Shown here: positions 3,882 to 24,895 of the stretch, piece after piece
Layout: the number at the start of each line of letters is the position of its first letter
Numbering within the stretch: the first letter of the stretch is position 1
Source of the DNA: a virus
UHGV virus genome: UHGV-0380056
Length of the DNA stretch: 42,239 bases
Direction: 5' to 3' (one strand)
The notes under the pieces: generated by a model
The model's input: only the letters and a program-made list of their open reading frames with translations
Databases searched by the model: none
What the model was told of the DNA's origin: nothing
Made by a program: the position numbers and the translations under genes

Positions 3882-3886
3882 AGTGA

Positions 3887-6640: not shown

Positions 6641-6644
6641 TCTA

Positions 6645-6673
6645 TTGACAATGGTCTCTAAGCATGCTATACT
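6645..6673 (+). promoter_or_regulatory. consensus sigma-A early promoter TTGACA-17-TATACT
   Basis: TTGACA 6645..6650, 17-nt spacer, TATACT 6668..6673, followed by the conserved leader taattcataaagtaagaggagg. Confidence 0.6.
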
Positions 6674-6703
6674 TAATTCATAAAGTAAGAGGAGGAAACA
6701 ACA

Positions 6704-6940
6704 ATGACAACAATGACACATGAAAAATACAACGAACTACAAAAGAAAATGGACAAACTGGTTAGCGACTTCGTAGACGAAATGGCAGAAATTGAAAGCT
6801 ATGAAGATCTTGACATGACTTCAGAATGGTTAGACGAACAAATACATAACATTTTCAGATGGGCGAATACAAATGATGAAAAAGTTCTTGCTGAACTACA
6901 CGCTGACTATTCAAAACTAAATGAGATGTTAGAATGTTAA
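6704..6940 (+). CDS. hypothetical acidic early protein (78 aa)
   Basis: First early ORF after the promoter. Rich in D/E residues (MTTMTHEKYNELQKKMDKLVSDFVDEMAEIESYEDLDMTSEWLDEQ...). Confidence 0.5.
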   Translation: MTTMTHEKYNELQKKMDKLVSDFVDEMAEIESYEDLDMTSEWLDEQIHNIFRWANTNDEKVLAELHADYSKLNEMLEC

Positions 6941-7260
6941 GTAAGTACTACACGGAAATCATGAAAATACAGCTTAGAGAGTTCAAGCGACTCTCTAAGG
7001 CTCATGATAAGGCTACTGAACGGTTAATGAAGATGAACTATCCAGACAATATGCAAAGCCACACAACGCAACGTTACTGGCAGACACACAATAAAATAGA
7101 ACAATGTGAAAAAGAAATGCGTACCATAATTGAAGAGCTAAACGAGTTGAATAAGCGCTTTCACTGGTTAGATAATTTACACCAAGAACGCTTTCATTTT
7201 CTCACTAAAGATGACGATTTATTACAATGCATTGTCACATTGATGAATGTGTACAAATAA
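6934..7260 (+). CDS. hypothetical early protein (108 aa)
   Basis: ORF overlapping the stop of the previous gene (ATGTTAA). Confidence 0.45.
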   Translation: MLSKYYTEIMKIQLREFKRLSKAHDKATERLMKMNYPDNMQSHTTQRYWQTHNKIEQCEKEMRTIIEELNELNKRFHWLDNLHQERFHFLTKDDDLLQCIVTLMNVYK

Positions 7261-7273
7261 AGGAGAAAAAAGA

Positions 7274-7450
7274 ATGATAACGTATCTTGTAATAATTAAT
7301 CTATTGGCTATGGTAGGCATTCTAGCTATCATATACATTATTGATGAGATTAAGACAGATAGAAAAATTAAAAAAGAAAAGGCGCGAAAAGAACAAATGA
7401 GAAAAGAGTTATTGGAAATCATTGATGAGATTATGGAGGAAGAAGAATGA
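7274..7450 (+). CDS. small membrane protein (58 aa, MITYLVIINLLAMVGILAIIYII...)
   Basis: AAGGAG ribosome-binding site 8 nt before ATG 7274. The 7247 start in the ORF track lacks an RBS. Confidence 0.45.
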   Translation: MITYLVIINLLAMVGILAIIYIIDEIKTDRKIKKEKARKEQMRKELLEIIDEIMEEEE

Positions 7451-7746
7451 ATTTATTAATTAAACTAATAATACTAGTTGCAATCGCAATGATTTTACAA
7501 TTTATAGCAGTATTCGCCTCTAAACTAGGTGAACAGGTGAACCGTAAAAGTATTGAAAAATTAAAGAATACCATTGCATTTCTGAAAGATTGTAGAAAAG
7601 CGGACGCAAAAGACTATCGTGAAATGTATCAAAGAGTTTTAGAAGCAAATATGAAGCTTGAAGAGATTAAAAAAGAAAATGAAGAATTGAAAAAACAACT
7701 TGACAAGCAAGACAATGTGACTTACAATTATTATATAAACAAATAG
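7447..7746 (+). CDS. membrane-anchored coiled-coil protein (99 aa)
   Basis: N-terminal transmembrane segment; ATGA overlap with the previous gene. Confidence 0.45.
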   Translation: MNLLIKLIILVAIAMILQFIAVFASKLGEQVNRKSIEKLKNTIAFLKDCRKADAKDYREMYQRVLEANMKLEEIKKENEELKKQLDKQDNVTYNYYINK

Positions 7747-7757
7747 GAGGAAAAATA

Positions 7758-7931
7758 ATGATTGGTGACTTTATTCTCTGGTTTAGACGTGTTAAGAAGG
7801 AAATGTTCTGTATACATGATTATGAGTGGCGTGACTTAACGAACAAAGAGCGTAATCTAGAAGGTAACGAACATACACTCAGCAAGCTGGTTTGTAAAAA
7901 GTGTGGGAGAGGTGACGATCCATATCGTTAA
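7758..7931 (+). CDS. small Cys-rich (zinc-ribbon-like) protein, 57 aa
   Basis: AGGAGG ribosome-binding site. Contains C..HD...CKKCG. Confidence 0.35.
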   Translation: MIGDFILWFRRVKKEMFCIHDYEWRDLTNKERNLEGNEHTLSKLVCKKCGRGDDPYR

Positions 7932-8014
7932 CTTTTGTACTACTAACTAAGTGTAACAATCAAACTAACAAAAAGTAAGCTTAGTAGTGTAATCATAACA
8001 GATGAGGAAATAAA

Positions 8015-8329
8015 ATGTTAAACGTAAAAGAAGGACAAACATATGTTTGTACAAAATCAGATAGACCATGGTGGACTAAAGGTGAGGAGTATGAAGTAGT
8101 ATTAAACAAGTATGGAGAATTGTGTTTCGTTGATGATGATGGAGGTAAATGGGTGATTCAATTCTGGAAGGATATTGGCGATTACTTTAAATTAAAAGAG
8201 ACGCAATCAAACACTGTAGAACCCAAGGATACACCATTTGACGTTACTAAAGTAATTCTAAAATCTTATCAACGGTATGACAATGACGCACAACGCTTGG
8301 CATATATCAAAGGATACTTTGCAAAATAA
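8015..8329 (+). CDS. hypothetical protein (104 aa)
   Basis: ORF with a GAGGAA ribosome-binding site. Confidence 0.45.
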   Translation: MLNVKEGQTYVCTKSDRPWWTKGEEYEVVLNKYGELCFVDDDGGKWVIQFWKDIGDYFKLKETQSNTVEPKDTPFDVTKVILKSYQRYDNDAQRLAYIKGYFAK

Positions 8330-8348
8330 AGAGGAGGATGATAAAATA

Positions 8349-8525
8349 ATGTACACTATTATAGTAACCAAATACAACGGCGGCGATGGTATCACAGAAA
8401 CAGAATATAACTATATTGATAAATATAAGATTACAGACGATTTTCTAATTCTGGAAGATTCTAAAATGGGTGTTTTACACTATATCACAAAGGATCAAGT
8501 GTTAGAATTTGAAGTGAATTGGTAA
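8349..8525 (+). CDS. hypothetical protein (58 aa)
   Basis: GAGGAGG ribosome-binding site immediately before ATG 8349; the longer ORF-track form has no RBS. Confidence 0.4.
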   Translation: MYTIIVTKYNGGDGITETEYNYIDKYKITDDFLILEDSKMGVLHYITKDQVLEFEVNW

Positions 8526-8551
8526 ATATAAAACGATAGGATGACTAAATA

Positions 8552-8731
8552 ATGAACTCAAACCAACTAATTACATTAACTAGAATTGATGAAACTACAG
8601 TATATGTAAACATTAATCACATTGCTGCATTCTATCACAACAAAGCTTGGGAATACACTATTGTTATCCTGTCAGATGGTACTCAATTAGACATAAAGGA
8701 TTCAGTAGAATCAATTAATAAATATTTTTAA
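8552..8731 (+). CDS. hypothetical protein (59 aa)
   Basis: ORF with a weak ribosome-binding site. Confidence 0.3.
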   Translation: MNSNQLITLTRIDETTVYVNINHIAAFYHNKAWEYTIVILSDGTQLDIKDSVESINKYF

Positions 8732-8737
8732 TGAAAA

Positions 8738-8770
8738 AGTATAGCACAAATAAAAAGTTTGTGCTATACT
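8738..8770 (+). promoter_or_regulatory. 13-bp inverted repeat AGTATAGCACAAA-N7-TTTGTGCTATACT embedding an extended -10 (TGcTATACT) for the HNH gene
   Basis: Perfect complementarity of 8738..8750 with 8758..8770. TATACT at 8765..8770, followed by the conserved leader aggtacataaataagagagg. Confidence 0.45.
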
Positions 8771-8799
8771 AGGTACATAAATAAGAGAGGAAGATTGAA

Positions 8800-9309
8800 A
8801 TGGAAGAGATTTGGAAAGATATTAAAGAATATGAAGGACTATATCAAGTAAGTAACTTGGGGAGAGTTAAGAGAGTTACAACAGGTAGAATTTTGAAAGG
8901 TAGTAAAGATAGAGGTGGGTATCTAGTAGTTAATTTATCTAAAAACAATAGTGGTTCTATGAAGAAAATTCATCGCCTAGTAGCTCAAGCGTTCATACCA
9001 AACCCAGAAAACAAAGCAGAGATTAATCATATAGACGAAGATAAGACAAACAACATGCTTTCAAATTTAGACTGGATGACGAGAAAAGAAAATAATAATC
9101 ACGGAACTAGAACAGACAGAATGGCTAAAACGCGAAGTATTCCAATCATTGCAATCAATCTAAAAACGAATGAATCTACAGAGTTCTATGGAGCTAGTGA
9201 ATGCGCTAGAAAACTAGGGTTACATCAACCAAGCATTACACATGTACTAAACGGCAGACGTAAACAAACTGGTGGATACACGTTTAAATATAAGGAGGAG
9301 CGGAAATAA
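8800..9309 (+). CDS. HNH homing endonuclease (NUMOD4 + HNH_3 + C-terminal DNA-binding module)
   Basis: [25 protein letters not shown]; [42 protein letters not shown]; C-terminal [13 protein letters not shown]. Confidence 0.85.
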   Translation: MEEIWKDIKEYEGLYQVSNLGRVKRVTTGRILKGSKDRGGYLVVNLSKNNSGSMKKIHRLVAQAFIPNPENKAEINHIDEDKTNNMLSNLDWMTRKENNNHGTRTDRMAKTRSIPIIAINLKTNESTEFYGASECARKLGLHQPSITHVLNGRRKQTGGYTFKYKEERK

Positions 9310-10895
9310 TGAATGAACTAACGAAAATTGACTATTCAGCACCAGTTGAAGAGTTACTACCAGTTTCAAATAAAAACTTTCCAAGTGAGGAGTTTGTGGA
9401 TTTCAAATCAGAGCTAGGACGAATGTACTATGGAGGAAAAGACGGCACACAACCAAAATTTGAGATTCAACAGGAATTATTTATTGATAAATTTAACCAA
9501 CTAGCATATGTGTACGCTCACCCTAACTTAAACGCGCCATACGTATACAATGCAGACACACGTATCTGGTCTGAGGTAAATCTAGGTAGTTACAAATATT
9601 CAGATTGGTATTTTGAGAACATTTTATCACCAAAATTCACACCACAATTCAGAAACCCAGAGTTTGGGAATGAAATTCGTAAGGAAATGAAGAAATTAGC
9701 ACCTGAATTGGCTAATCGCTCTATGACACGTGGAGAACAGGCACCACTAGGTGACAACCCTAACCCTAACATTATCGCATTTGAGAATGGCACGTATGAC
9801 TTTAAAACAAATGACATTCGTGAAACAAGGTTGGAAGATTATCATACACTTCAACTACCATATCCTTTAATTAAGACAGATGAAACAGATGAATTACTAG
9901 CTAAACAATGGATTGATTATTTGCTGAAAGACCAAGCCCAGACATTATATGAGTATATTGGGTACATGTATTATAGAGAGTACAAATATCAATCTATTTT
10001 ATACCTATTAGGTAATGGTTCAAATGGTAAATCTTACGTTGGGGGGTTTATCATGAACAAATTAATTGGGTTCAAAAACAGTTCAGCAGTTGGCCTAGAC
10101 AATTTAGCAGATAAGAGCAACCGTTTTGATAAAGCTTCATTACACCATAAATTATTGAACTTTGAAGCTGATTCAAGTGCAAACTTTGTAAAAGGTACTG
10201 AGACACTGAAAAAACTTTCAGGTGGTCTTGATGCTGTTCACGCTGAGAAAAAAGGAAAAGATGCGTTTAGTTTTACCAATTATGCAAAACTAATGTTCTC
10301 AATGAATGAGCTGCCAGCCTTTAACGACCGCACAAATGGATGGTATAGACGTATTCTTATCCTAAACTTTAACACTAATCTTGATACACCAGAAGCACGT
10401 GAACGCATTAATGAGTTCAACAAACAACGTGAGGAACGTGAGTCAAAAGAGCAACTAGGTAAATTTGCATGGTTCTGTATTCAACAATTTAAAAAGATTT
10501 TAGACGCTGGTACAAATGGTGAAAACCCATTCACAGAGACAGAAGATATGATTGCCTTCAAGAAAGCTTACATTGAATCAAATGACCCATCTAAAGAGTT
10601 TTTGAGTGAAGTACCTGTCATTGTGGAAGATGAAGAAGGAACCGTTAACCTAACACTATTGAAGAATATTTTTAACGTGTACACGAAAGAGAATAATATT
10701 AATAAGTCAATGAACTGGCGCACCATGAAAGAATTATTATTGAAGCAAGGCTTTGAGGAAAAACGGACAAGTAAAGCACGAGTACTAACTGGTCTAAAGA
10801 TTGCACGTAATGGAGATGCTGACGCGGTTAAACCTTATCTAATGAACGCACTAGCAGGGACAGAGTATGTAAATATTTTCAATGATGTAGAATAG
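9309..10895 (+). CDS. DNA primase-helicase (D5 N-terminal / P4-type SF3 ATPase)
   Basis: Walker A YLLGNGSNGKSY, with a downstream Walker B / D5-like region. Confidence 0.7.
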   Translation: MNELTKIDYSAPVEELLPVSNKNFPSEEFVDFKSELGRMYYGGKDGTQPKFEIQQELFIDKFNQLAYVYAHPNLNAPYVYNADTRIWSEVNLGSYKYSDWYFENILSPKFTPQFRNPEFGNEIRKEMKKLAPELANRSMTRGEQAPLGDNPNPNIIAFENGTYDFKTNDIRETRLEDYHTLQLPYPLIKTDETDELLAKQWIDYLLKDQAQTLYEYIGYMYYREYKYQSILYLLGNGSNGKSYVGGFIMNKLIGFKNSSAVGLDNLADKSNRFDKASLHHKLLNFEADSSANFVKGTETLKKLSGGLDAVHAEKKGKDAFSFTNYAKLMFSMNELPAFNDRTNGWYRRILILNFNTNLDTPEARERINEFNKQREERESKEQLGKFAWFCIQQFKKILDAGTNGENPFTETEDMIAFKKAYIESNDPSKEFLSEVPVIVEDEEGTVNLTLLKNIFNVYTKENNINKSMNWRTMKELLLKQGFEEKRTSKARVLTGLKIARNGDADAVKPYLMNALAGTEYVNIFNDVE

Positions 10896-10907
10896 GAGAT
10901 TTTATTT

Positions 10908-11405
10908 ATGAAAGAAATTTGGAAAGATATTGAAGGATATGAAGGAGTTTATCATGTGAGTAACTTAGGACGAGTGAAGAGAGTTGCAACAAATAGAGTT
11001 TTACAACCATATAGAAACAAAGTTGGCTATTTACTAGTTTATTTATGTAAAAACGGTAAGCGTAAAACTCATAGAATCCACCGTTTAGTAGCACAATCTT
11101 TCATACCAAACCCAGAAAATAAACCAGAAGTTAATCACCTAGACGAAAATAAGATTAATAACATGGTTTCAAATCTAGAATGGTCAACTAGAAAAGAAAA
11201 CTGTAACTATGGAACACGTAATGAAAGACTTAGTATCCCAATTATAGCAACTAAGCTAAAGACTGGTGAATCTAGAGAGTTCTATGGAACTAATGAATGT
11301 GCTAGAAAACTAGCGTTAAATAATGCACACATTACAAGTGTTCTAAAAGGTAGATTGAAACAAACAGGTGGATACACATTCCAATATAAGGAGGAAGAAG
11401 GATGA
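10908..11405 (+). CDS. HNH homing endonuclease (NUMOD4 + HNH_3)
   Basis: MKEIWKDIEGYEGVYHVSNLGRVKRV; [28 protein letters not shown]; C-terminal KQTGGYTFQYKEEEG. Confidence 0.85.
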   Translation: MKEIWKDIEGYEGVYHVSNLGRVKRVATNRVLQPYRNKVGYLLVYLCKNGKRKTHRIHRLVAQSFIPNPENKPEVNHLDENKINNMVSNLEWSTRKENCNYGTRNERLSIPIIATKLKTGESREFYGTNECARKLALNNAHITSVLKGRLKQTGGYTFQYKEEEG

Positions 11406-11626
11406 ACAAATATTATGTATACACAGTAAATAGTGATGAACCATTTGTGGTAAGGACAACAAATGACTTACAACAAAACTATATATCTGCCATTGTTGAA
11501 ACAAACGGAGTAGGTACTTGGCGTTTTGAGTATGAAGGAGAGGAAAAACCAGGTAGAACACCAACCAGGTATGACAGTGTGTTTAGCTTAGAACATATTG
11601 TATCTATTGTAAAAATAATTGAATAA
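11402..11626 (+). CDS. hypothetical protein (74 aa)
   Basis: ORF whose Shine-Dalgarno is provided by the HNH 3' end (tataaggaggaagaaggATG). Confidence 0.45.
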   Translation: MNKYYVYTVNSDEPFVVRTTNDLQQNYISAIVETNGVGTWRFEYEGEEKPGRTPTRYDSVFSLEHIVSIVKIIE

Positions 11627-11640
11627 TTTTAAACTTTACC

Positions 11641-11669
11641 CTTGACTTATTGTTGAGGGTATTGTATTA
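11641..11669 (+). promoter_or_regulatory. consensus promoter TTGACT-17-TATTAT
   Basis: TTGACT at 11641..11646, TATTAT at 11664..11669. Confidence 0.5.
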
Positions 11670-11699
11670 TATAAATATAGAGATGAGGGAGGACTTAAA

Positions 11700-11897
11700 A
11701 TGAAATTACATGAATTAACAAAACAATATGAAGATTTAAGAACTGAAGCAGAAATGTTGGAATCATGGATAGTGTATGCAGATTCAATTGAATTAAATGC
11801 CTTGGGAAATGAATTAGAAGACAGACTTGACAAAGTTGAAAGTCTAATGTATGTTGTAAATACACAAATTAAGAAATTGGAGGTTCACAACCAATGA
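11700..11897 (+). CDS. hypothetical coiled-coil protein (65 aa)
   Basis: ORF with a GGGAGG ribosome-binding site. Confidence 0.45.
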   Translation: MKLHELTKQYEDLRTEAEMLESWIVYADSIELNALGNELEDRLDKVESLMYVVNTQIKKLEVHNQ

Positions 11898-11987
11898 CAG
11901 TTACAATTGCAAGTTTATTATTTATGGGTGCAGCACTAACAAGTATTGCAGTACTACTTAAATGGCTAGAAGAAGGAGGATATTAAA

Positions 11988-12170
11988 ATGTATACTGTTG
12001 GTAGAGATCCAGAGCACACTTATGCTATTGAAGTATTGAACGATAAAGGAGAATGGGTAAGGGATATGTATGATGTGCCTATAGATATATATAGCATACA
12101 GAAGCTGGCTCAACATTATAAATTACGAGGATACACACTAAAACAAATTAGAATAGTGAAGGTGATTTAA
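11988..12170 (+). CDS. hypothetical protein (60 aa)
   Basis: ORF with a GGAGGA ribosome-binding site. Confidence 0.4.
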   Translation: MYTVGRDPEHTYAIEVLNDKGEWVRDMYDVPIDIYSIQKLAQHYKLRGYTLKQIRIVKVI

Positions 12171-12171
12171 G

Positions 12172-12387
12172 ATGGATAAATTGAATTACAGAAAAGATCT
12201 AACAACAGAAACGAATGAGCACGTGAGTGTTGGAACGTATGACAACGATAGTGATATTTACATTAGATTACTAGACGATGAAGATGATTGTGCCCTTGTA
12301 ACACTAACTCTGAAAGAGGCACAACGTGTGAAGCGCTATTTATCAGAAGCTATTACAACTAATAAGATGAATTGGGAGGAAGAATGA
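12172..12387 (+). CDS. hypothetical protein (71 aa)
   Basis: ORF with a ribosome-binding site. Confidence 0.4.
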   Translation: MDKLNYRKDLTTETNEHVSVGTYDNDSDIYIRLLDDEDDCALVTLTLKEAQRVKRYLSEAITTNKMNWEEE

Positions 12388-12737: not shown

Positions 12738-12787
12738 TGTGTCAAGATGATAAAAGTTATGGTATACTATAATAAAGGAGTGATACA

Positions 12788-13477
12788 ATGTATATAGTAT
12801 ATTTACATGTTAACAGAGTAAACAATAAAAAATATTTTGGAATAACGTCACAAAATCCACTGAAGAGATGGAATAATGGAAAAAATTATAGTAGTAAGCA
12901 TTTTAAAAACTCAATATTAAAATATGGGTGGGAAAATTTCAATCACTTTATTATAAAATAAGGATTAACAAAAACGGAGGCGTGTCTACTAGAGATTAAG
13001 TTGATTAATAAATATAATACTACAGACCAGCAATATGGATATAACATATCTGTAGGAGGTGACTGTCCAGCAAGAGGTATGAAACATTCCAAAGAATTTA
13101 AAGAGCAACAGAGTGTACGTAGTAAAAATATAAATTGGACATTAGAAAAGAGGAGTAATATCAGTAAAGGTCTTAGAAATCACTATTTAATGCATGAGTC
13201 ACCATTAAAAGGTAGACCTCAGTCATCTGAACACATTAAGGCTAGAAGCGAGGCACTACGTGGTAGAAAAATATCAGTTGATACACGAGATAAAATATCT
13301 AAAACATTAGGTGGGAGATTATTCAAAGCTACTAATATTGAAACAGGAGAGGTGATATATAGTCACAATCAAACGGCAACAGCTAAAAAGCTTAATGTGC
13401 GTAGAACAGGGCTGAGAAGATGTTTAAACAACGAGCAAAAACAAACAGGGGGCTACACTTTTGAATATGCAAAATAA
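12788..13477 (+). pseudogene. GIY-YIG homing endonuclease interrupted by an in-frame TAA (12959..12961). The N-terminal GIY-YIG fragment is 12788..12961; the remainder is the TTG-start ORF 13001..13477
   Basis: The N-terminal fragment reads MYIVYLHVNRVNNKKYFGIT...KYGWENFNHFIIK, then a stop, then GLTKTEACLLEIKLINKYNTTDQQYGYNISVGG. This is colinear with the intact GIY-YIG at 38358..38915 (YGWDNFNHFIIVDKLTKDEADSLEIKLIQAYDTTTTGYNICHGG). The C-terminal module ends QKQTGGYTFEYAK, like the HNH family. Confidence 0.7.
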
Positions 13478-14771
13478 AATAGGTAAAGTAGAACTTCTTC
13501 CACATCAAGTTGAAGCTATTGAATTATCTGATAAAAAGAATTTTGACTTATCATCCGCTGGAACTGGAAAAACGTACTCAGCACTGGGTGCTTATTTGAA
13601 AAGTGGATGTAGTAAATTATTAGTGGTCTGCTTAGCCCCTAAAGTAGCTGATTTTGCAGAAGATGGTAACTTAATGGGAATTACCATTACCCCGTTAAAC
13701 AAAGGAACTGCTAAAAATAAAAAGTTATTATCAGAATCAGATAGAGTAGCCATTAGTTTTGAGAGTAGTTGGCGCTTAACTGATTTGTTGAAATGGGTTA
13801 ACAACGATACTTATATTTTAATTGATGAAAGCCATAAGGTCTCAGTACCAAAATCAAAAGTAACTAAATTCATGATGAGCTTATGTAAAAAGACCACTCA
13901 TGTTAGATTATTAACCGCAACCCCAGTAGCAAACGGAAAACTAGAAAACTACTATAGTCAATTATATATGTTAAATGTGTTCCGCAAGCCAAAAAAAGAG
14001 TTCTATGAGTTATTCGTAACTGAACGCATGCAACAAATGGGATCCGCTAGATTCATGCAGATTATTGGTTACCGCAACGAGCACTTATTGAAACAAATGA
14101 TTGATAAAGTAAGTGTTAGGTATGAACGTGATAAACCATATATGCCACAAGATTTTTATTATAAGACCAAAAAGCCTGCGTTTTATAATAAATTAAAGAA
14201 AGTCAGAATGTACAAAGACGACCTAGATAATATTATTGAGCTAGACAATAGTAGTAAATTATTTAACGCACTGCGTCAAGTATCACATGGTTTTCTTAAA
14301 GGTGTACACAAACAGGTGTCTAAAGAACCGTTTGAGCGTTTACAAGCAGTACTAGAAGAATACAGTGGTGAACGAGTGGTCATATTTTATAATTACAACG
14401 CAGAGTTTTATATGATTTCAGAACTGTTAAATAAACTAAAAAGACCGTACAGTAGTTATAATGGAAATAATAAAGATTTGACTAATTTCAAAGACTATGA
14501 TAATGGAGTGGTTTTAGCCCAATATAAAAGTGCGAGTACAGGTATCAATAGCTTGAAAATAGCTAGTGTATGCGTATTCAATTCTATGCCATTAAGTTCT
14601 ACAGACTATATTCAGGCAAAAGCTAGAGTTGATAGATTTGGTCAGGAGCGTACACCTAACTTTATCCACATTATTCCAGATACACCCATTGAGAAAAAGA
14701 TATTTGAAACAGTCACAAATGGAAAAGATTTTACAAATGAAATGATTGAAAGTGTTGACAAGTATAGCTAA
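13461..14771 (+). CDS. SF2 DNA helicase (DEAD/DEAH or SNF2-like)
   Basis: LPHQVEAIE; Walker A SAGTGKTY; DESH box LIDESHKV; motif VI QAKARVDRFGQ. Confidence 0.7.
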   Translation: MNMQNKIGKVELLPHQVEAIELSDKKNFDLSSAGTGKTYSALGAYLKSGCSKLLVVCLAPKVADFAEDGNLMGITITPLNKGTAKNKKLLSESDRVAISFESSWRLTDLLKWVNNDTYILIDESHKVSVPKSKVTKFMMSLCKKTTHVRLLTATPVANGKLENYYSQLYMLNVFRKPKKEFYELFVTERMQQMGSARFMQIIGYRNEHLLKQMIDKVSVRYERDKPYMPQDFYYKTKKPAFYNKLKKVRMYKDDLDNIIELDNSSKLFNALRQVSHGFLKGVHKQVSKEPFERLQAVLEEYSGERVVIFYNYNAEFYMISELLNKLKRPYSSYNGNNKDLTNFKDYDNGVVLAQYKSASTGINSLKIASVCVFNSMPLSSTDYIQAKARVDRFGQERTPNFIHIIPDTPIEKKIFETVTNGKDFTNEMIESVDKYS

Positions 14772-14784
14772 TCATGCTATACTT
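14755..14784 (+). promoter_or_regulatory. consensus promoter TTGACA-17-TATACT whose spacer and -10 form a 9-bp inverted repeat (AAGTATAGC-N7-GCTATACTT)
   Basis: TTGACA at 14755..14760 (inside the end of the helicase CDS). TATACT at 14778..14783, followed by the conserved leader ttgtacataaataagaggagg. Confidence 0.5.
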
Positions 14785-14815
14785 TGTACATAAATAAGAG
14801 GAGGTATTAAATACT

Positions 14816-16088: not shown

Positions 16089-16578
16089 AGGATATGAAGG
16101 TAGATATGAGGTTAGTAACTTAGGTAGAGTTAGAAGTTTAAATTACAATAACCAAAAAGGAAATATAAAAGTTAGACCAAGTGTTCCTCATAAACATGGG
16201 TATAGACAAATTAAACTAGGTAATAAAAGCAAATTAATCCACCGTCTAGTAGCAGAAGCATTTATCCCAAACCATGAAAATAAACCTTGTGTTAATCATC
16301 TGGACGAGGATAAGACAAATAATAGAGTTGATAACTTAGAATGGGTAACAAAGAAAGAAAATAACAATTATGGTACTAAGAATATTAGAAGCGCATACAA
16401 GAATAAATACATTTCTGGAAACTTCAAATCCGTAAGTTGCTCAAATGGAGTAGAGTATTTTAGTGTGTCAGAAGCTTGTCGTCAATTAGATTTAGACCCA
16501 AGTACTGTCGTAAAAATTCTAAAAGGTACACGTAAAAGTACTAGAGGCTACACCTTTAAATATAAGGAGGAAGAGTGA
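16042..16578 (+). CDS. HNH homing endonuclease (NUMOD4 + HNH_3)
   Basis: [21 protein letters not shown]; [28 protein letters not shown]; C-terminal [12 protein letters not shown]. Confidence 0.85.
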
Positions 16579-16856: not shown

Positions 16857-16885
16857 GTTGACATTGAACCAAGAATATGTTAAGA
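16857..16885 (+). promoter_or_regulatory. promoter TTGACA-17-TAAGAT
   Basis: TTGACA at 16857..16862; TAAGAT at 16880..16885. Confidence 0.45.
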
Positions 16886-16918
16886 TTAAAATAGTTAAAA
16901 GAGAGAGGATATGATAAG

Positions 16919-17790: not shown

Positions 17791-18532
17791 TTTTGACATA
17801 CATTACACAGGAAGCAAAGGAAATTCAGTTTCAATCTATTATGGTAATTTAGGATTTTTAATTGACATTGGTAAACCATATAAATATATTGAACCACACT
17901 TATATGACAAACAATTTATTTTAATATCACACGTTCATGGTGACCATCTTGTCTATACAACATACAAGAAGATTAGAGAGAACTTTCCACATATCAAGAT
18001 TTTATCTAATAGTACAGTTAATGAAGCACTAATCAAACGTAAATTACCAGATGTAGATATTATCTTCAAAGATGACTTCCAATTTAAAATTGGAGATGTT
18101 AAATTTACAACTCTACAAAATTATCATGGATCAGGAGAAGACTTCACTGATACACATGGTTTCATACTAGAAAGTCCTTCACAGAATTTGATTTATGCAA
18201 CTGATTTAAGTCAATTGGTAGATTATGAAACATATCTATTGACAAACAACTTAAAACTTGATATAGTATTACTAGAAGCTAACTATGACCCTAAAGTCAT
18301 TGAATTCTATGAGGCAACAAAAACACATACAGGATATGATGTTTTCAGCAACGGAAGTTATAGACATTTAGATACTGAACAAAGAAAACTTTTTGTTGAC
18401 AAGTTTGGAAATATAGGGTATACTGATGTAGAGCTTCACCAATCAGCAACATACAGAACGTTTGATGGATTGATTAAAAAATCAAAAGGAAAAATATCTA
18501 AAAAAGATGTTGACAATTATTTAACTAGGTAA
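17768..18532 (+). CDS. metallo-beta-lactamase-fold hydrolase (nuclease-like)
   Basis: ILISHVHGDHLV, the HxHxDH motif. GGAAGGA ribosome-binding site before ATG 17768. Confidence 0.6.
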   Translation: MTDMKKFDFDIHYTGSKGNSVSIYYGNLGFLIDIGKPYKYIEPHLYDKQFILISHVHGDHLVYTTYKKIRENFPHIKILSNSTVNEALIKRKLPDVDIIFKDDFQFKIGDVKFTTLQNYHGSGEDFTDTHGFILESPSQNLIYATDLSQLVDYETYLLTNNLKLDIVLLEANYDPKVIEFYEATKTHTGYDVFSNGSYRHLDTEQRKLFVDKFGNIGYTDVELHQSATYRTFDGLIKKSKGKISKKDVDNYLTR

Positions 18533-18543
18533 TATACTTAGTT
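18510..18543 (+). promoter_or_regulatory. consensus promoter TTGACA-17-TATACT with a 21-bp near-palindrome (AACTAGGTAATATACTTAGTT) centred on the -10
   Basis: TTGACA at 18510..18515; TATACT at 18533..18538; conserved leader tagttcataagataaagaggagg. Confidence 0.5.
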
Positions 18544-18568
18544 CATAAGATAAAGAGGAGGAAGAATA

Positions 18569-19059: not shown

Positions 19060-19280
19060 TGAAAAAATATACTGTAAAAGAATTAGCACATTTATTAGAT
19101 GAGTACTATATAGGTATCACATTTAGTGACGATTACAGCGCATGGTCAAGTCTTGAAATGTTTGTTACAATGCAAGAAGTAATTGATAAATATGGTGAAC
19201 ATACGATTAAATGGATTAGTTTTTATGGTTCAGAAGATGAGAATTATCAAGTAATTAGATTGGAAGGTGACAGGGAATGA
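19056..19280 (+). CDS. hypothetical protein (74 aa)
   Basis: ORF with GTGATGA overlap. Confidence 0.4.
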   Translation: MMKKYTVKELAHLLDEYYIGITFSDDYSAWSSLEMFVTMQEVIDKYGEHTIKWISFYGSEDENYQVIRLEGDRE

Positions 19281-19444
19281 ATTATAAAACACTTTTAAAA
19301 TTGGACTATGGATACACTGAAAACCAGTTGTTTGATGTGATTGAGAAATATGTGTGGCTTTTAAAAATAAATTATACAATTGCAGAACTCTTTGCAGTAG
19401 AGTATAAACGTCTTAAACTGAAGGATGAAGAGAATGGTATTTGA
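19277..19444 (+). CDS. hypothetical small protein (55 aa)
   Basis: ATGA overlap with the upstream stop. Below the ORF-track cutoff. Confidence 0.25.
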   Translation: MNYKTLLKLDYGYTENQLFDVIEKYVWLLKINYTIAELFAVEYKRLKLKDEENGI

Positions 19445-20240
19445 ATTATCAATTCAAACTAACGGAACACAAGAAATTCAATTTCTTGGCTATGAGAAAA
19501 CTTTGAATGATGTTAGGAGGTTGTCAGAACGTATGAAAACGCAAGAGGTTACAGAAGAAAATGCAATAGAAAATAAAAAACTTCTTGCTGAGGTACGTAA
19601 AGAAATTAAAAAATTAGATGCAGAACGTTTGGCAGTAAAGCGTGAGATTATGACACCTTATGATGAATTGAATGAAAAGATTAAGCTATTAAAAGAGGTG
19701 TTGTTTGAAGGTGAGGAACATATTAATGCACAAATTAAAGAGATTACCACAAGGCAACAAGAACAACGTAAGTTACAAATCAAAGACTTATTTAAAAAAT
19801 ATCAGAAGTCATATAACGCTCCACAATGGCTTACTTTTGATAAGTTTTTAGCAAAAAACCAAACTCTGATAACCAATAAAGCAACAAGTGCTAAAAAGAT
19901 ACGTGAATCAGTGGTTTCTTATTTTGAAACATTTAAACAGGATTATGATATGTTAAAAACACAATATCCTGATAAAGACGATCGTTCAGCTATTTTGATT
20001 GCCTACTCTAAAAATGGCTTTAATATGCAAGAAGCTATTTTAGACTATACAAGTATGATTGCTGAGAAAGAACGTCTTGAAAAAGAACAGGCTAGAGTAA
20101 AAGAAACCAAAGTACCTGACATTGTCATACTAACTGGAAACGAGCAAAAACAGGAAGCTCCCAAGCCAGTTGAATATGTGACAATTAAGATTAAGAAAGA
20201 AGACTTGAAGAAACTTAAAATTGATTATGAGATACTTTAA
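19425..20240 (+). CDS. hypothetical K/E-rich coiled-coil protein (271 aa). Start uncertain: 19425 or 19434
   Basis: Long ORF with a coiled-coil composition. Confidence 0.45.
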   Translation: MKRMVFELSIQTNGTQEIQFLGYEKTLNDVRRLSERMKTQEVTEENAIENKKLLAEVRKEIKKLDAERLAVKREIMTPYDELNEKIKLLKEVLFEGEEHINAQIKEITTRQQEQRKLQIKDLFKKYQKSYNAPQWLTFDKFLAKNQTLITNKATSAKKIRESVVSYFETFKQDYDMLKTQYPDKDDRSAILIAYSKNGFNMQEAILDYTSMIAEKERLEKEQARVKETKVPDIVILTGNEQKQEAPKPVEYVTIKIKKEDLKKLKIDYEIL

Positions 20241-20264
20241 TATCACACACAAGTAAGGGAATAT

Positions 20265-20277
20265 ATGATATAATAGA
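20265..20277 (+). promoter_or_regulatory. extended -10 promoter TGATATAATAGA preceded by TCACACACAA (same pair of elements as the leftward promoter at 6244..6290)
   Basis: tcacacacaagtaagggaatataTGaTATAATaga. Confidence 0.4.
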
Positions 20278-20321
20278 TTTTGTAAGAGAGAAAATAAAAC
20301 AAATTAATTGGAGGAATTAAA

Positions 20322-21014
20322 ATGTCAGAATTGAAAAAAGTAATTATTGTTAGCTCAGAGGAAGATGATATTAGTGTGAAATTACAGGTAGCCAGTGAGG
20401 ATTATAGTGCTATCTATGAAGCAGCAGTGTTTAAACAAACATATGATAAAGACTCTAAAACGTGGAAAGACTTTACAGATGAAGACACAAAAGGTAAAGA
20501 ACGCTTAGCTAAAGCCTTAGAACTTTTAGGTGGATCATTTGAAAATCTTGAAGATAAAGAGTTAGAAATGTATGTAGACGAAGTAACAGGCAAAGCCTAT
20601 TTTGAAGAAGGTACATCATTTAAGAAGATTGAGAAACCATTAGTCTCACTGAAACGCTTGAAGCAAGTACCGATTGTTGAAATTAAAGATTCAGCAAAAG
20701 GACGTGCTGTGATCGTAGAACATGACGGTAAGTATTACTCATTTAACTTCAACTCAGGAGTATATATTGAGAAATTAAATAAATTTATTCCTAATCAAGC
20801 GAAACTTGCAAAAGCTAAGGCACGATTTAATGAGTTGTTTGAAGATGTAAATATCACGTGGGATACAGCAGAAATGGCAGTTGGAATGGTGGTTGATTGT
20901 ACAGTTAATAAGAACATGTTGGATCCAAAATCACAATATGGATGGTTAGAGGCACAACCACTTGATCCAGACGATCAAAAAGAAGTCGTAACAGAAGATG
21001 AATTACCGTTTTAA
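20322..21014 (+). CDS. hypothetical acidic protein (230 aa)
   Basis: ORF with a GGAGGA ribosome-binding site. Confidence 0.45.
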   Translation: MSELKKVIIVSSEEDDISVKLQVASEDYSAIYEAAVFKQTYDKDSKTWKDFTDEDTKGKERLAKALELLGGSFENLEDKELEMYVDEVTGKAYFEEGTSFKKIEKPLVSLKRLKQVPIVEIKDSAKGRAVIVEHDGKYYSFNFNSGVYIEKLNKFIPNQAKLAKAKARFNELFEDVNITWDTAEMAVGMVVDCTVNKNMLDPKSQYGWLEAQPLDPDDQKEVVTEDELPF

Positions 21015-21018
21015 AATA

Positions 21019-21057
21019 AATGTAAAAGAAGTTGACTTAATGGTTGACTTCTTTTTT
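21019..21057 (+). terminator. imperfect hairpin plus T6 (weak terminator)
   Basis: aagaag...cttctttttt flanking a TTGAC-N7-GTTGAC direct repeat. Confidence 0.35.
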
Positions 21058-21062
21058 ATACA

Positions 21063-21071
21063 TGATATACT
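21063..21071 (+). promoter_or_regulatory. extended -10 TGATATACT with the conserved leader for the HNH gene
   Basis: catgaTATACTtagttcataagatgaag. Confidence 0.4.
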
Positions 21072-21105
21072 TAGTTCATAAGATGAAGAATAGGAGAAGA
21101 TAAAA

Positions 21106-21639
21106 ATGAATGAAATTTGGAAAGATATTGAAGGATATGAAGGGTTGTACCAGGTTAGTAATTTGGGGAGAGTTAAATCTTTTGATAGTATAGATAAGTT
21201 AGGTAGAATACGTAAAGGTAGAGTTTTGAAAGGTATTAAAGATGTAAAAGGGTATCTACTAGTTAACTTATATAAAAACAGTATTGTATACACTAAGAGA
21301 CTTCATCGTTTAGTAGCAGAGACATTTATCCCAAATTCAGAAAACAAACCGCAAGTTAATCATATTGACGAGAATAAGGCAAATAACATAGTTTCAAATC
21401 TTGAATGGATGACTGCTAAGGAAAATATTAATCATGGAACACGTAATGAAAGAATGAGTAGAACGCAAAGTATTCCAATCATTGCAACTAATATCAAAAC
21501 AGGTGAATCTCAAGAGTTCTATGGAACAGCTGAATGTGCTAGACAATTAGCTTTGCATCACGGAAATATCACATCAGTTCTAAAAGGTAATCGTAATCAC
21601 ACTGATGGTTACACATTCAAATATAAAGGAGTAGAGTAA
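21106..21639 (+). CDS. HNH homing endonuclease (NUMOD4 + HNH_3)
   Basis: MNEIWKDIEGYEGLYQVSNLGRVKS; [28 protein letters not shown]; C-terminal TDGYTFKYKGVE. Confidence 0.85.
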   Translation: MNEIWKDIEGYEGLYQVSNLGRVKSFDSIDKLGRIRKGRVLKGIKDVKGYLLVNLYKNSIVYTKRLHRLVAETFIPNSENKPQVNHIDENKANNIVSNLEWMTAKENINHGTRNERMSRTQSIPIIATNIKTGESQEFYGTAECARQLALHHGNITSVLKGNRNHTDGYTFKYKGVE

Positions 21640-21640
21640 T

Positions 21641-21859
21641 ATGACAATCAAGATTGGAAACGTAGTAGAACTTAAAGACGATAATCTAAACGGATTAGGC
21701 AATAAAGAAGATAAAGGTGTGCTGTTGTATAAGTTGTACAATCCAGTTGATGGTTGGGATTACATGATCCGTCTTTATTCTGGATCAACAGAAGCATTTC
21801 TAGAAAAAGATTTAAAATTAGGAGTAAAAACAATTGACAAAGTGAACCTAACATGGTAA
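21641..21859 (+). CDS. small KOW/SH3-like protein (72 aa)
   Basis: MTIKIGNVVELKD.... The Shine-Dalgarno comes from the HNH 3' end (tataaaggagtagagtaatATG). Confidence 0.45.
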   Translation: MTIKIGNVVELKDDNLNGLGNKEDKGVLLYKLYNPVDGWDYMIRLYSGSTEAFLEKDLKLGVKTIDKVNLTW

Positions 21860-21862
21860 TAT
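21834..21862 (+). promoter_or_regulatory. promoter TTGACA-17-TAATAT followed by the conserved leader
   Basis: TTGACA at 21834..21839; TAATAT at 21857..21862; leader taactcataagataaagagaggaag. Confidence 0.45.
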
Positions 21863-21893
21863 TAACTCATAAGATAAAGAGAGGAAGATTAAA

Positions 21894-22229
21894 ATGACTA
21901 AACCAAATCCAGTATTAGAAACATTGAATAAAATGAACACACCACAACATGAGGAGGAAAATAAAATGTCAAATGAACAATTACAAAATGAAATCTTGAA
22001 GGAACAATTAGCACAACTTAAAATTATGAAAGAGGATTCTAGCAAACCAAGTCTGATGGTCTATCTATTACTAGCATTGTTCTTAGGCGGAATTGGCGCT
22101 CATGATTTCTATGTTGGTAAAACAGGTACAGGACTTATTAAACTAGTTTTCTGTTGGACAGGTATTCCACTCATCATCTCAGTATTTAATATTATTGGCG
22201 CATTGATGAACAAACAAAACTTTAAATAA
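21894..22229 (+). CDS. TM2-domain membrane protein
   Basis: LALFLGGIGAHDFYVGKTGTGLIKLVFCWTGIPLI. The GxHxFYxG motif is the TM2 signature. Confidence 0.55.
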   Translation: MTKPNPVLETLNKMNTPQHEEENKMSNEQLQNEILKEQLAQLKIMKEDSSKPSLMVYLLLALFLGGIGAHDFYVGKTGTGLIKLVFCWTGIPLIISVFNIIGALMNKQNFK

Positions 22230-22245
22230 TAGGAGGAAGATTAAC

Positions 22246-22452
22246 ATGATGTTTTTAGATATATTAGTACTTACAGTGAAAGATGAAGATGGAGTAATCA
22301 TGAACAGACATTTTAATGAATTATATGTAAAGATTGATTCATCTACAATTACAATTAGTAACAAGAAGAAAACGATTGCTGTTTATAAATTAGATGATGT
22401 ATTATATATGCAAACACAAGCTCATCCACGTCAGTTCAAATGTTTCAGATGA
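22246..22452 (+). CDS. hypothetical protein (68 aa)
   Basis: ORF with a GGAGGA ribosome-binding site. Confidence 0.4.
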   Translation: MMFLDILVLTVKDEDGVIMNRHFNELYVKIDSSTITISNKKKTIAVYKLDDVLYMQTQAHPRQFKCFR

Positions 22453-22553
22453 GATATACGCTTGAAAGTTTCATAGAATTTATATTTTGCACTTGTGTAT
22501 TAGTAATAGATGTGGTATACTATATTATATTCAAACGAGAGAGGAAGTAAGGA

Positions 22554-24833
22554 ATGAAAAACATTGCAGAATTTAAAGGTGCTGAAACGTTAGCAAGTAA
22601 GCTGTTAGAAATATTCGCAGCACTTGCTGGCAATGGTAAAAGTTTTGACCCAATGATTGAAGGCGTCCATCAAGTGATAGTGATTAAAGCAGAGGAACGA
22701 CTAAGTGCTAAAGGTAAAGAAATGAAAGAGATTAAAGTACGTAGCACAAAAGATGGTCGTGATGCAACATTTTATATTATGAAGTTTCGTAAGCAAGATT
22801 GGAAAACTTGGGAAAATATAGAAGTTGGACAGCAGTTAATGATTACTCTAAAATACAACAATGGTTTTCCAAATGTAACCATTAATCAAAAAGGATCAGT
22901 AATTGATAATTTACCTGAGAAACCAAATGAGGCACTAACAAAACAAACAATCTATATTTATGACATTGAAGTATTTAAAAAAGATAATTTGTATATATTC
23001 AGAGATTATTTCACTAAAGAATGGACAGTTATTCATAATAATTTGGACGCTTTACGTAAGTTCTATCTAGCAAATAGAGATTCGTTGTTTGTAGGTTATA
23101 ACTCACATTCATATGACTCAAATGTCATGCGTGCTTATTTACAAGGCAAAAACCCATTTCATGTGTCAAAAGCAATCATTGAAAGTGATGATAGAGGTTT
23201 AGTATATAAAATGTTTGATACTAAAAAAACACCACTTTTTGGAATGGACTTGTATCAAGACAATAGAGGCTTCAGTTTGAAAGAGCATAGTGCTTTCTTA
23301 GGTATCAACATTAAAGAAACTGATGTAGACTTTGACTTAGATAGAGAACTAACAGAAGAAGAGCAAGTATTGAATGAACTGTACTGTAAGAATGATGTGT
23401 TAGCTACTGAAAAACGTTTTGAACAAAACATAGGTATGTTAGTAGCTAAGGCTGCAATTGCATTATACTTTGGTTTAGATAAAATGGCACTGTCAATGAC
23501 AAACGCAAACTTGACTGCTGAACTATTAGGGGCTGAAAAAACACCTGATAGAGGTGACGAGTTAGATAAGTATGAACTACCAGAAGGATTTGAAATTGAG
23601 TCAGAAACCATTCGTCAGGGGTTTATGACAGATGAATTTGAAGCTAATGATAAAGGACATGCTAGTATTTCATTAGATGTACCACGTAGAGACGTAACAG
23701 AAGTATTAGGAGTAGGTGGTATCCATGGTGCTAAAGAGTCATTTATTCATGTAGGTAACTTCCACGCACGTGATGTAGGTTCATTGTATCCAAACACAAT
23801 GGTGCTGTTTGACTATTTGTCAAGAAATATTCCAGAAGAAAAAAGACATATCTATCAAATGTTATTAGACGAACGTATGGAAGCTAAGTATTCTAATAAA
23901 GAATTTACTGAAATTAAAGGCGTTCAGATTCCAACCAAGTTGCTAATTAATGGGTATAAGCTACCTCTAAACACTAAATATGGAGCAATGGGAGCTGAGT
24001 TTAATAAACTGTATGACCCACGTATGCGGTTGTTAGTATGTATCACTGGTCAGATGGCAATGTGGGATTTACTAGAAAAGATTGAAAACCATGCTACTAT
24101 TATTCAATCAAACACAGACGCACATTATTATATTCCATTCAGTGAAGAAGATGAAAAAGCCATTGATGATATTGCAAATGATTGGATGAAACGGACAGGG
24201 TACACTTTAGATGATGATCCATTTAAAGCTATTTTCCAGAAGGACGTAAATAATTATTTGGCTGTTACATCAGATGGCAAAGTTAAGTTTAAAGGTGCTA
24301 TAGGACTAACTAATGGGTTGAAAGTATCTAAAGCAATTGTGTCAAATGCCTTTATTAACTATGTGGTTGCTGGTAAAGACTATAAAGAGTTTATTAATGA
24401 GTGTGACGAACTACGTCAGTTCCAAATGATTACGAAAACAGGCTATACTTTTGATGATACTGTGGTACGTGATAGTAAAGGTAATGAAATGAAAGCACAA
24501 AAAGTAAACCGTACCTTTGCAATAAAAGACCCTAATAAAGCTGTTGAAATATTCAAAGTTAAACATGGAGCGGTTATTGAAGAGGAAGGCACAACCATTG
24601 TTGGTGATGATTCATACACTAAAGGATTAGCTAATGCACCTGAGTATTATGCCATTGATAATGAAGCTATTGGTGAAGGATGGATAAATCTTGATGACAT
24701 TGATAAAGAGTACTATATAAACCAGGTAGAAGATTTACTAGTAATGTGGTTTGGCACAAATTGGAAAGAGAGAATTGAACAGGCTCATAGTCAAATAGAT
24801 GATTTTCCAGAAGTTAAAAATTATATTGATTAA
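22554..24833 (+). CDS. DNA polymerase, divergent family B (3'-5' exonuclease plus polymerase domains)
   Basis: Exo I: IYIYDIEVF. Exo II: FVGYNSHSYD. Motif-B-like: KLLINGYKLPLNTKYGAMG. Motif-C-like: IIQSNTDAHYY. Confidence 0.65.
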   Translation: MKNIAEFKGAETLASKLLEIFAALAGNGKSFDPMIEGVHQVIVIKAEERLSAKGKEMKEIKVRSTKDGRDATFYIMKFRKQDWKTWENIEVGQQLMITLKYNNGFPNVTINQKGSVIDNLPEKPNEALTKQTIYIYDIEVFKKDNLYIFRDYFTKEWTVIHNNLDALRKFYLANRDSLFVGYNSHSYDSNVMRAYLQGKNPFHVSKAIIESDDRGLVYKMFDTKKTPLFGMDLYQDNRGFSLKEHSAFLGINIKETDVDFDLDRELTEEEQVLNELYCKNDVLATEKRFEQNIGMLVAKAAIALYFGLDKMALSMTNANLTAELLGAEKTPDRGDELDKYELPEGFEIESETIRQGFMTDEFEANDKGHASISLDVPRRDVTEVLGVGGIHGAKESFIHVGNFHARDVGSLYPNTMVLFDYLSRNIPEEKRHIYQMLLDERMEAKYSNKEFTEIKGVQIPTKLLINGYKLPLNTKYGAMGAEFNKLYDPRMRLLVCITGQMAMWDLLEKIENHATIIQSNTDAHYYIPFSEEDEKAIDDIANDWMKRTGYTLDDDPFKAIFQKDVNNYLAVTSDGKVKFKGAIGLTNGLKVSKAIVSNAFINYVVAGKDYKEFINECDELRQFQMITKTGYTFDDTVVRDSKGNEMKAQKVNRTFAIKDPNKAVEIFKVKHGAVIEEEGTTIVGDDSYTKGLANAPEYYAIDNEAIGEGWINLDDIDKEYYINQVEDLLVMWFGTNWKERIEQAHSQIDDFPEVKNYID

Positions 24834-24837
24834 ACAC

Positions 24838-24866
24838 TTGACACCTCTTAAATGAGGTGTTATACT
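24838..24866 (+). promoter_or_regulatory. consensus promoter TTGACA-17-TATACT; the spacer is a hairpin (acacctc-ttaaat-gaggtgt)
   Basis: TTGACA at 24838..24843; TATACT at 24861..24866; leader taattcataagttaagaggagg. Confidence 0.55.
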
Positions 24867-24895
24867 TAATTCATAAGTTAAGAGGAGGAAAACAA

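Follow-up and report, generated by a model that had tools for sequence, protein, structure and literature searches.

In UHGV-0380056, a virus genome of 42,239 nucleotides (nt) that was analysed over its whole length (the window), seven genes are preceded by a near-identical stretch that includes a promoter -10 hexamer and runs through the transcribed leader to the Shine-Dalgarno (SD) sequence. Why is such a promoter conserved for about 20 nt beyond its -10 element, and what reads the additional bases? A sequence-only reading of the window had regarded this conservation as more than a promoter needs, and had suggested (i) a common binding site for a translational regulator or RNase or (ii) a cassette that moves as a unit. 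We conclude that the seven units probably each join a very strong early promoter of the host type to a minimal leader with strong ribosome binding. The repeat is real, and most likely it is largely ordinary, representing a further case of a design long known from phage T5.

The window is in effect the whole genome of a virulent Enterococcus siphophage, its matches being confined to Enterococcus phages. Some 60-65% of the block between 6 and 26 kb aligns at 83-86% identity to the E. faecium siphophages KEN20, dArtagnan and Aramis, and more distant matches come from Efquatrovirus. Gene order and GC skew delimit an early and replication block on the + strand (~6.2-25.9 kb), flanked by structural and lysis genes on the - strand. 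The seven units, whose -10 hexamers start at 6668, 8765, 14778, 18533, 21066, 21857 and 24861, would represent the operon-start modules of this block. Pfam confirms the identities of the genes behind them, three being HNH endonucleases (I-HmuI-like, NUMOD4 + HNH_3), one a TM2 protein and one a D12 adenine methylase; the remaining two are small open reading frames (ORFs) without an assigned role.

All seven copies described by the sequence-only reading are present, one of them (21857) with TAATAT instead of TATACT. The consensus given there is no more than approximate, and its downstream core fits only two of the seven at up to one mismatch, because the copies carry 1-2-nt insertions or deletions between CATAA and the SD. 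Alignment of the seven confirms that conservation does not stop at the -10 hexamer but continues for about 20 nt, with the invariant columns C-A-T-A-A and, further downstream, one T and one A. Conservation is also found upstream of the -10, at (c)ATGn and at TTGACA: a -35 element TTGACA or TTGACT lies at a distance of 16-17 nt in six sites (score 10-11 of 12), site 8765 being an extended -10 only, and TGn, the Gram-positive '-16' or extended -10 element, stands directly 5' of the hexamer in six of the seven. At every site the start codon is an ATG located 29-34 nt beyond the end of the -10, with a purine-rich SD in between. The string TATACT-N5-CATAA occurs exactly at six + strand sites; with up to one mismatch it gives nine hits against 2.6 expected, a count reached in none of 100 shuffles. 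With a gapless 17-nt weight matrix, the seven sites, together with three late-type sites on the - strand, rank far above all other positions.

We collected promoter-like sites from the window and seven related genomes by the criteria of a -35 element, a TAnnnT hexamer, and an SD and start codon in range. For the 82 sites with a 17-nt spacer, the information profile is ~0 bits in the -35/-10 spacer, 0.7-1.1 bits per position in the ATG before the -10, 0.6-0.9 bits per position in ATAA at +1 to +4, and 0.9-1.2 bits in GGAGG. Among 91 unique sites, ATAA is found exactly 6 nt after the hexamer in 55, at 5 nt in none and at 7 nt in one, the chance level being ~1.4% per site. In phages that are by now ~80-86% identical, orthologous promoters retain the leader, and their spacers have diverged completely. 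That CATAA stays locked to the -10 while the spacer drifts argues for selection on the start region, and the downstream conservation looks selected rather than inherited by recent copying. A neutral similarity, in which recent duplication or gene conversion of promoter copies accounts for the repeat without any selection past the -10, finds some footing in sites 6668 and 14778, which have 11 of 17 spacer bases in common (by eye on the alignment), and in the common spacer of the ~20 copies in the Enterococcus phage EFLK1; copying does happen in some genomes. As an account of the seven units it is extremely unlikely, given a spacer almost devoid of information beside a conserved start region and SD, and given orthologues that retain the leader and not the spacer.

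Counted from the -10, the seventh base, which is the A of CATAA, is by standard geometry the probable transcription start; it is preceded by a 6-nt AT-rich discriminator that ends in C. The predicted +1 positions are thereby A 6680, 8777, 14790, 18545, 21078, 21869 and 24873. This placement matches the mapped starts of Listeria phage CKA15 and the published +1 of T5 N25. The predicted transcript, 5'-AUAAG(A/U)UAAAGAGGAGGAA..AUG, has a purine-rich leader of ~24 nt, with the SD from ~+9 and the AUG at ~+25, and divides into a 5' tail of ~7 nt, an extended SD of 8-10 nt and a spacer of 7-9 nt. The extended SD could pair with nearly the entire 3' tail of 16S rRNA, taken here as the textbook Firmicutes tail: pairing energies of the cassettes range from -11.2 to -13.7 kcal/mol, compared with a mean of -8.6 for internal genes (P = 0.008). 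The leaders themselves are unstructured, with minimum free energies of 0 to -1.8 kcal/mol in six of the seven and z-scores near 0. We rejected a structured RNA (riboswitch, attenuator or T-box), as an Rfam scan of the whole window returned nothing at the gathering threshold and folding of the seven predicted leaders shows no structure.

The regulator site proposed in the sequence-only reading would correspond to a common operator at which a translational repressor or endoribonuclease, encoded by phage or host, would switch off all early operons together in the manner of T4 RegA/RegB. The motif is indeed limited to the early class, and many early proteins without known function could hide such a factor. 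A motif counted from the RNA 5' end would likewise keep a fixed distance to the -10; 5'-end-dependent recognition is therefore compatible with the observed spacing, which does not separate a role of the DNA start region from one of the 5'-terminal RNA. Against an operator, the leader motif is absent from the internal ribosome-binding sites of this genome, and of 53 copies of the 17-nt leader ATAAGATAAAGAGRGGA found by searching viral contigs for it alone, 38 have a TAnnnT hexamer 6 nt upstream. Neither RNA structure nor an Rfam match speaks for it, and Pfam and PHROG reveal no sigma, anti-sigma, repressor, RNase or RNA-binding family among the ~40 early proteins, a weak negative since so many of these have no known function. 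The string moreover occurs in phage families with almost no common genes, so that any factor would have to be host-encoded. A block locked to the -10, unstructured leaders and the lack of such protein families thus turn against the regulator site, and we regard an operator as very unlikely.

The notion that the conservation exceeds what a promoter needs viewed the promoter too narrowly. The initial transcribed sequence (ITS) alters promoter output by up to ~three orders of magnitude (PMC5961368) and strongly modulates the escape-limited, near-consensus T5 N25 promoter (PMC12464699); the rest of the conserved stretch is the extended SD. Enterococcal host promoters are of the form tgnTAtaaT, mostly extended -10 only, and ~4% of them have a canonical -35 (PMC7724050), which places the phage promoters at the strong extreme. 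Each unit would represent a near-consensus host sigma-A promoter (TTGACA, 17 nt, (c)ATGn, TATACT), and because it combines all strength elements it is likely to be escape-limited, so that selection on the transcribed region is expected rather than surprising. We propose that tight binding of RNA polymerase would render promoter escape limiting and place start context and ITS under selection, while the same bases would double as ribosome-binding site; the stretch past the -10 would then be conserved through a double reading, by RNA polymerase and by the ribosome. With the SD almost at the 5' end, little naked RNA would be exposed to 5'-end-dependent decay. An abundance of T and of TG steps in the first 7 base pairs (bp) characterises sequences that escape slowly (PMC5961368); direct sequence reading finds no TG step within +2 to +10 in six of the seven ITS, copy 21066 having one at +7/+8. 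The -10-like TAAGAT at +2 to +7 was considered as a sigma-dependent pause element and rejected, T at +7 carrying only 0.27 bits. In 5' stabilisers such as those of Bacillus subtilis phage SP82 and the cryIIIA STAB-SD, an SD-like polypurine near the mRNA 5' end stabilises the RNA, independently of a nearby start codon. The window leaders resemble these in having a strong polypurine SD within the first 10-18 nt of the predicted transcript, and differ from them in that this SD is the gene's own ribosome-binding site.

The same layout is found in T5, where N25 reads TATAAT-AGATT-CATAA-ATTTGAGAGAGGAG. In T5P31, P33 (= N25), P35, P37 and P25, the -10 is followed by 5-6 nt, (C/T)ATAAAT, an SD and a start codon ~30 nt after the -10, and the T5 record AY587007 annotates these promoter stretches as 'repeat b' and 'repeat c'. 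T5 and the window have in common an A/T-rich, then purine-rich transcribed region that holds the SD (GAGAGAGGAG or GAGGAGG), a start codon ~29-31 nt after the -10, and a -10-plus-leader stretch that is near-identical at several promoters of one genome; the window likewise shows the start block 5-6 nt after the -10, the SD within +8 to +20, the ATG at ~30 nt, and repetition of the whole. The two systems differ in host, polymerase and promoter elements, T5 using E. coli sigma-70 with a TTGCTT-type -35, an A-rich upstream block and TATAAT, the window enterococcal sigma-A with TTGACA, ATGn and TATACT. The leaders also differ after CATAA; there is no sequence homology, and the design alone is common to both.

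In Listeria phage CKA15 (P100-like), ONT-cappable-seq yielded an early motif ATGxTATACTTAA at -16 to -5 with TTGACTT at -35, and a late motif TGYTATAWTA without a -35 (PMC12282133). Both motif classes occur in the window with the same spacing. CKA15 differs from the window phage in that it is a large myovirus and has sigma and anti-sigma candidates of its own, and its motif search reported no conserved element past the -10 (PMC12282133), whereas conservation in the window extends through the +1 to the SD. For the group of Enterococcus phages studied here we found no transcription-start maps in the literature, and searches with the cassette strings gave nothing relevant. The host-takeover module of phage SPO1 (Stewart et al. 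1998, cited within PMC12282133) is likewise an array of early operons. Its upstream regions, read directly in the sequence, show that each operon reuses a promoter in one house style and, for ribosome binding, the near-identical stretch GTAAAAGGAGAGGTT. The SPO1 leaders differ in being ~50 nt long with a hairpin, the distance from -10 to ATG is not fixed at ~30 nt, and the sequences are unrelated.

Beyond this genome, 59 stretches of viral contigs contain the exact 21-mer TATACTTARTTCATAAGWTAA, and the same -10-plus-leader string is found in no fewer than five groups of phages: this clade of 42-kb siphophages together with Efquatrovirus, Kochikohdavirus, Schiekvirus, Copernicusvirus and Saphexavirus. 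EFLK1 (Kochikohdavirus) has ~20 early promoters of the form TATnnT-aggtt-TATAAGATAAAGAGAGGAAG, and the cassette is found in EFP01 (Schiekvirus), in the 18-kb podophage Ef6.3 (Copernicusvirus) and in EF1c55 (Saphexavirus). Three IMG/VR contigs (L025, L057 and L024, of 117, 56 and 19 kb) contain TTGACAaatttcaaaacttatggTATACTtaattCATAAgttaaggaaaggaag and may represent another, uncharacterised phage group with the same cassette; megablast against the phage collection gave no match for 4.6 kb of L025 sequence. A host origin of the exact string was rejected, as it is not a host chromosomal or plasmid motif in species-representative genomes and plasmids: with one genome per species the 19-mer TYATAAGATAAAGARRGGA gave 77 scattered hits, none of them in Enterococcus, and the 39-mer cassette had no match in 72,556 plasmids. 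Gene transfer was likewise rejected as the cause of sharing across families, since tblastn of the early proteins of the window against the EFLK1 and EFP01 segments recovered two small homologues only, too few for the ~20 EFLK1 copies. Spacers differ between the families, and whole promoters were therefore not transferred. Two cases hint at some exchange between phages: the EFP01 cassette precedes a homologue of window ORF 8015 (61% identity) and has a spacer that resembles the first early promoter of the siphophage, and Ef6.3 and Efquatrovirus LY0322 have the derived variant GGGAGGAATTAA in common.

Several observations weigh against regarding the units simply as strong promoters with strong ribosome-binding sites. 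When the 39-mer was searched against 50,697 phage records, 132 of the 141 matches were Enterococcus phages, a host-specific or historical component that such a design leaves unexplained. Among 123 sites with the core TTGACW-N13-ATGnTATACTTA in unrelated viral contigs, ~35 of which are copies of one conserved coding-sequence motif, ATAA stands at the cassette offset in only five; generic needs of promoter and ribosome-binding site thus do not obviously demand the exact string. In addition, the +1 of this phage and its close relatives is deduced from geometry, site 8765, with no -35 and embedded in a palindrome, may be a weaker promoter, and the proposed stability role draws on B. subtilis. That unrelated Enterococcus phages have the exact leader in common could be due to an optimum specific to the host or to phages exchanging promoters. 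We think it unlikely that the +1 to +10 block (5'-AUAAGAUAAAG) goes beyond a good start region and acts as a host-genus-specific element, in the DNA at the start site or in the RNA at its 5' end, which an Enterococcus-specific component reads or fails to read, or that it is a shared linker for the exchange of early genes among unrelated Enterococcus phages. Candidates for the component in the former case would include an accessory subunit of the polymerase, an RNase or pyrophosphohydrolase that depends on the 5' end, and a defence system. If true, either version would account for a string that is present in at least five Enterococcus phage groups but is missing from phages that infect other hosts, from plasmids and from the species-representative genomes of Enterococcus.

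Does the cassette then travel with the homing endonucleases that three of its copies precede? At all three loci, relatives devoid of the HNH gene have the same promoter directly 5' of the resident gene. At the 8800 locus, where the HNH gene is inserted upstream of the primase gene 9309, IME-EFm5 has the same palindrome and -10 directly 5' of primase; at the 14816 locus the promoter stands directly 5' of the primase-polymerase gene in dArtagnan; and at the 21106 locus IME-EFm5 and IME-EFm1 have it directly 5' of the orthologue of gene 21641. Joint travel, as the sequence-only reading had suggested, is therefore refuted, and a homing endonuclease unit with its own promoter was rejected, the promoter not being limited to HNH-bearing alleles. 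The left HNH junctions lie at ~+4 (8800), at ~+10 (21106) and just past the SD (14816), that is, within the leader; the HNH genes therefore sit in resident leaders and borrow the resident promoter, and would have been inserted between ~+4 to +17 and the resident start codon. At the other end, the conserved I-HmuI-like C-terminus G-Y-T-F-K-Y-K-E-E provides the SD for the displaced gene through its codons KYKEE (AAATATAAGGAGGAG), and the stop codon either overlaps the next ATG or lies directly beside it; such regions lie at 9280-9311, 11375-11404, 16550-16577 and 21610-21643, and on the - strand at 3881-3900. The displaced primase-polymerase gene starts with TTG 15338 within the end of the HNH gene and is preceded by GGTGGAGG. 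The other HNH genes 10908, 16042 and 17317 are located within operons and have no cassette.

The wider idea, that the cassette is a mobile or recombinogenic module, carried with homing endonucleases or acting as a short homology linker that shuffles genes within or between Enterococcus phages, recalls the PeSL of T4-type phages, reportedly described by Arbiol et al. in 2010 as short repeated intergenic units of an early promoter and a stem-loop. Hairpins do overlap cassettes 8765, 21066 and 24861 and the related promoter 11665; unlike in PeSL, a conserved stem-loop is lacking from most copies, it is the part 3' of the -10 that is conserved rather than a stem-loop, and there is no sign here of excision, circles or PeSL-mediated shuffling. 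Several loci are suggestive of modularity: the promoter after the DNA polymerase gene fronts Dam here and thioredoxin or uncharacterised ORFs in relatives; at the primase-polymerase locus, two promoter alleles that are unrelated to each other carry one and the same leader; relatives have the spacer hairpin of site 24861 at another locus as well; and the EFP01 and Ef6.3/LY0322 cases point the same way. Homology blocks also end more often at cassette gene starts (6.7 per site) than at internal gene starts (3.1 per site), a ~2-fold enrichment that is modest and inflated by cross-hits between HNH paralogues. Co-movement with HNH genes is refuted, the HNH paralogues are just 37-69% identical, and their association with the cassette is weak (hypergeometric P = 0.03-0.09, varying with how endonuclease genes are counted). 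The spacers vary between copies, which argues against copying of whole units. We consider a mobile module unlikely.

Read as strong promoters with a ribosome-binding leader, the units are of use in annotation: they mark operon starts and distinguish early (TTGACA + TATACT + CATAAG leader) from late (TGnTATAAT only) sites in a large group of therapeutic-candidate Enterococcus phages. They would also explain how free-standing HNH genes are expressed, namely through insertion into a leader, a borrowed promoter and an SD in the C-terminal codons that is handed to the displaced gene. The 60-bp unit is a candidate strong expression cassette for Enterococcus. What remains of scientific interest is the exact leader common to unrelated Enterococcus phages, a host-genus-wide house style.

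The seven cassettes, all on the + strand, are built as follows. Cassette 1 (6645-6703) has TTGACA at 6645-6650, a 17-nt spacer ending in cATGc, TATACT at 6668-6673 and the discriminator TAATTC. Its unstructured leader AUAAAGUAAGAGGAGGAAACAACA begins at the predicted +1, A 6680, precedes ATG 6704 of a 78-amino-acid ORF (phrog_36002) and has an SD pairing energy of -12.3 kcal/mol. In the divergent intergenic region that adjoins this first early promoter (6221-6703), (A/T)ATGACAAAA is repeated at least ten times, in either orientation, with tandem pairs at 6316-6331, 6343-6360, 6420-6437 and 6517-6534; the repeats look like iterons or operator sites. Cassette 2 (8738-8799) has no -35; its -10 at 8765-8770 within TGcTATACT is followed by AGGTA, CATAA and AUAAGAGAGGAAG up to ATG 8800 of the I-HmuI-like HNH gene. 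Here TATAC forms the 3' arm of a perfect 13-bp palindrome at 8738-8770 (AGTATAGCACAAA / TTTGTGCTATACT). The palindrome is kept in relatives whether the HNH gene is present or not, and it scores as a terminator on the - strand only, where no gene needs one.

Cassette 3 (14755-14815) consists of TTGACA at 14755-14760, TATACT at 14778-14783, TTGTA, CATAA and AUAAGAGGAGG, ahead of the HNH start ATG 14816. In cassette 4 (18510-18568), TTGACA at 18510-18515 and TATACT at 18533-18538 are followed by TAGTT and CATAAGAUAAAGAGGAGG; the 88-amino-acid ORF that starts at ATG 18569 has no family match. A perfect TTGACA-17-TATACT without a cassette-type leader lies 114 nt upstream of it, at 18396-18424 within the gene for a metal-dependent hydrolase, and may be a tandem promoter or a chance match. 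Cassette 5 (21044-21105) has TTGACT at 21044-21049, a 16-nt spacer, TATACT at 21066-21071, TAGTT and CATAAGAUGAAGAAUAGGAG before the HNH start ATG 21106, and its -35 is overlapped by an upstream hairpin with a T-run. Cassette 6 (21834-21893), of which all relatives have orthologous sites, combines TTGACA at 21834-21839, TGg and the -10 TAATAT at 21857-21862, TAACT and CATAAGAUAAAGAGAGGAAG ahead of ATG 21894 of the TM2-domain protein.

Cassette 7 (24838-24895) follows the DNA polymerase gene and carries TTGACA at 24838-24843, TATACT at 24861-24866, TAATT and CATAAGUUAAGAGGAGG before ATG 24896 of the D12 adenine methylase. Its -35/-10 spacer (24841-24860) is filled by the inverted repeat ACACCTC/GAGGTGT, which may be a weak terminator nested in the promoter or an operator. 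In relatives (L001 30227, L005 3264 and L007 33237) the repeat reads ACACCCC/GGGGTGT with varying loops, a compensatory change of the stem, and it is also found at the primase-polymerase promoter.

Three related promoters fall outside the cassette subclass. An early promoter at 7700-7757 (+ strand) reads TTGACA-17-TACAAT, TATTAT, ATAA and AAUAGGAGG up to ATG 7758, with the same geometry as the cassettes. A second at 11637-11699 (+ strand) has TTGACT-17-TATTAT before ATG 11700, its -35 lying within a terminator-like hairpin at 11637-11661. The third, at 4433-4488 on the - strand, has TTGACA-17-(TGc)TATTAT, AATAGT and ATAAAAGAGGAGG before ATG 4432 and fronts a fourth I-HmuI-like HNH gene. This gene (3887-4432, - strand) lies ahead of the small terminase gene and has an in-frame TGA at codon 13, followed by ~165 intact codons; it may be a fresh pseudogene or may reinitiate at GTG 4384. 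ORF 12788-12961 (57 amino acids) matches homing endonuclease families in its N-terminal part only and ORF 13001-13477 matches the C-terminal I-HmuI NUMOD-like domain only, so that the pair looks like a split or decayed endonuclease. It has a promoter-like site of its own, TGgTATACT, at 12763.

A second promoter class of the form (T)aTGnTATAAT, without a -35, is found on the - strand at 41742, 38332, 37665, 37035, 33282, 30068, 27551, 4737, 3287 and 1436, usually directly 3' of a terminator hairpin with T-run and 5' of structural, lysis and terminase genes. Two late-type sites on the - strand, again with no -35, illustrate its relation to the cassette: at 33240-33290 a terminator T-run is followed by TGtTATAAT, TAATA, CATAA, an SD and ATG 33244 (Dit), the start context alone being common to this site and the cassette, and at 36996-37045 by TGtTATAAT, AGATA, CATAA, an SD and ATG 36995 (tape measure). 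Late-type promoters as a class have only CATAA in common with the cassette, and their SDs are of the AAAGGAG(T/A)G type.

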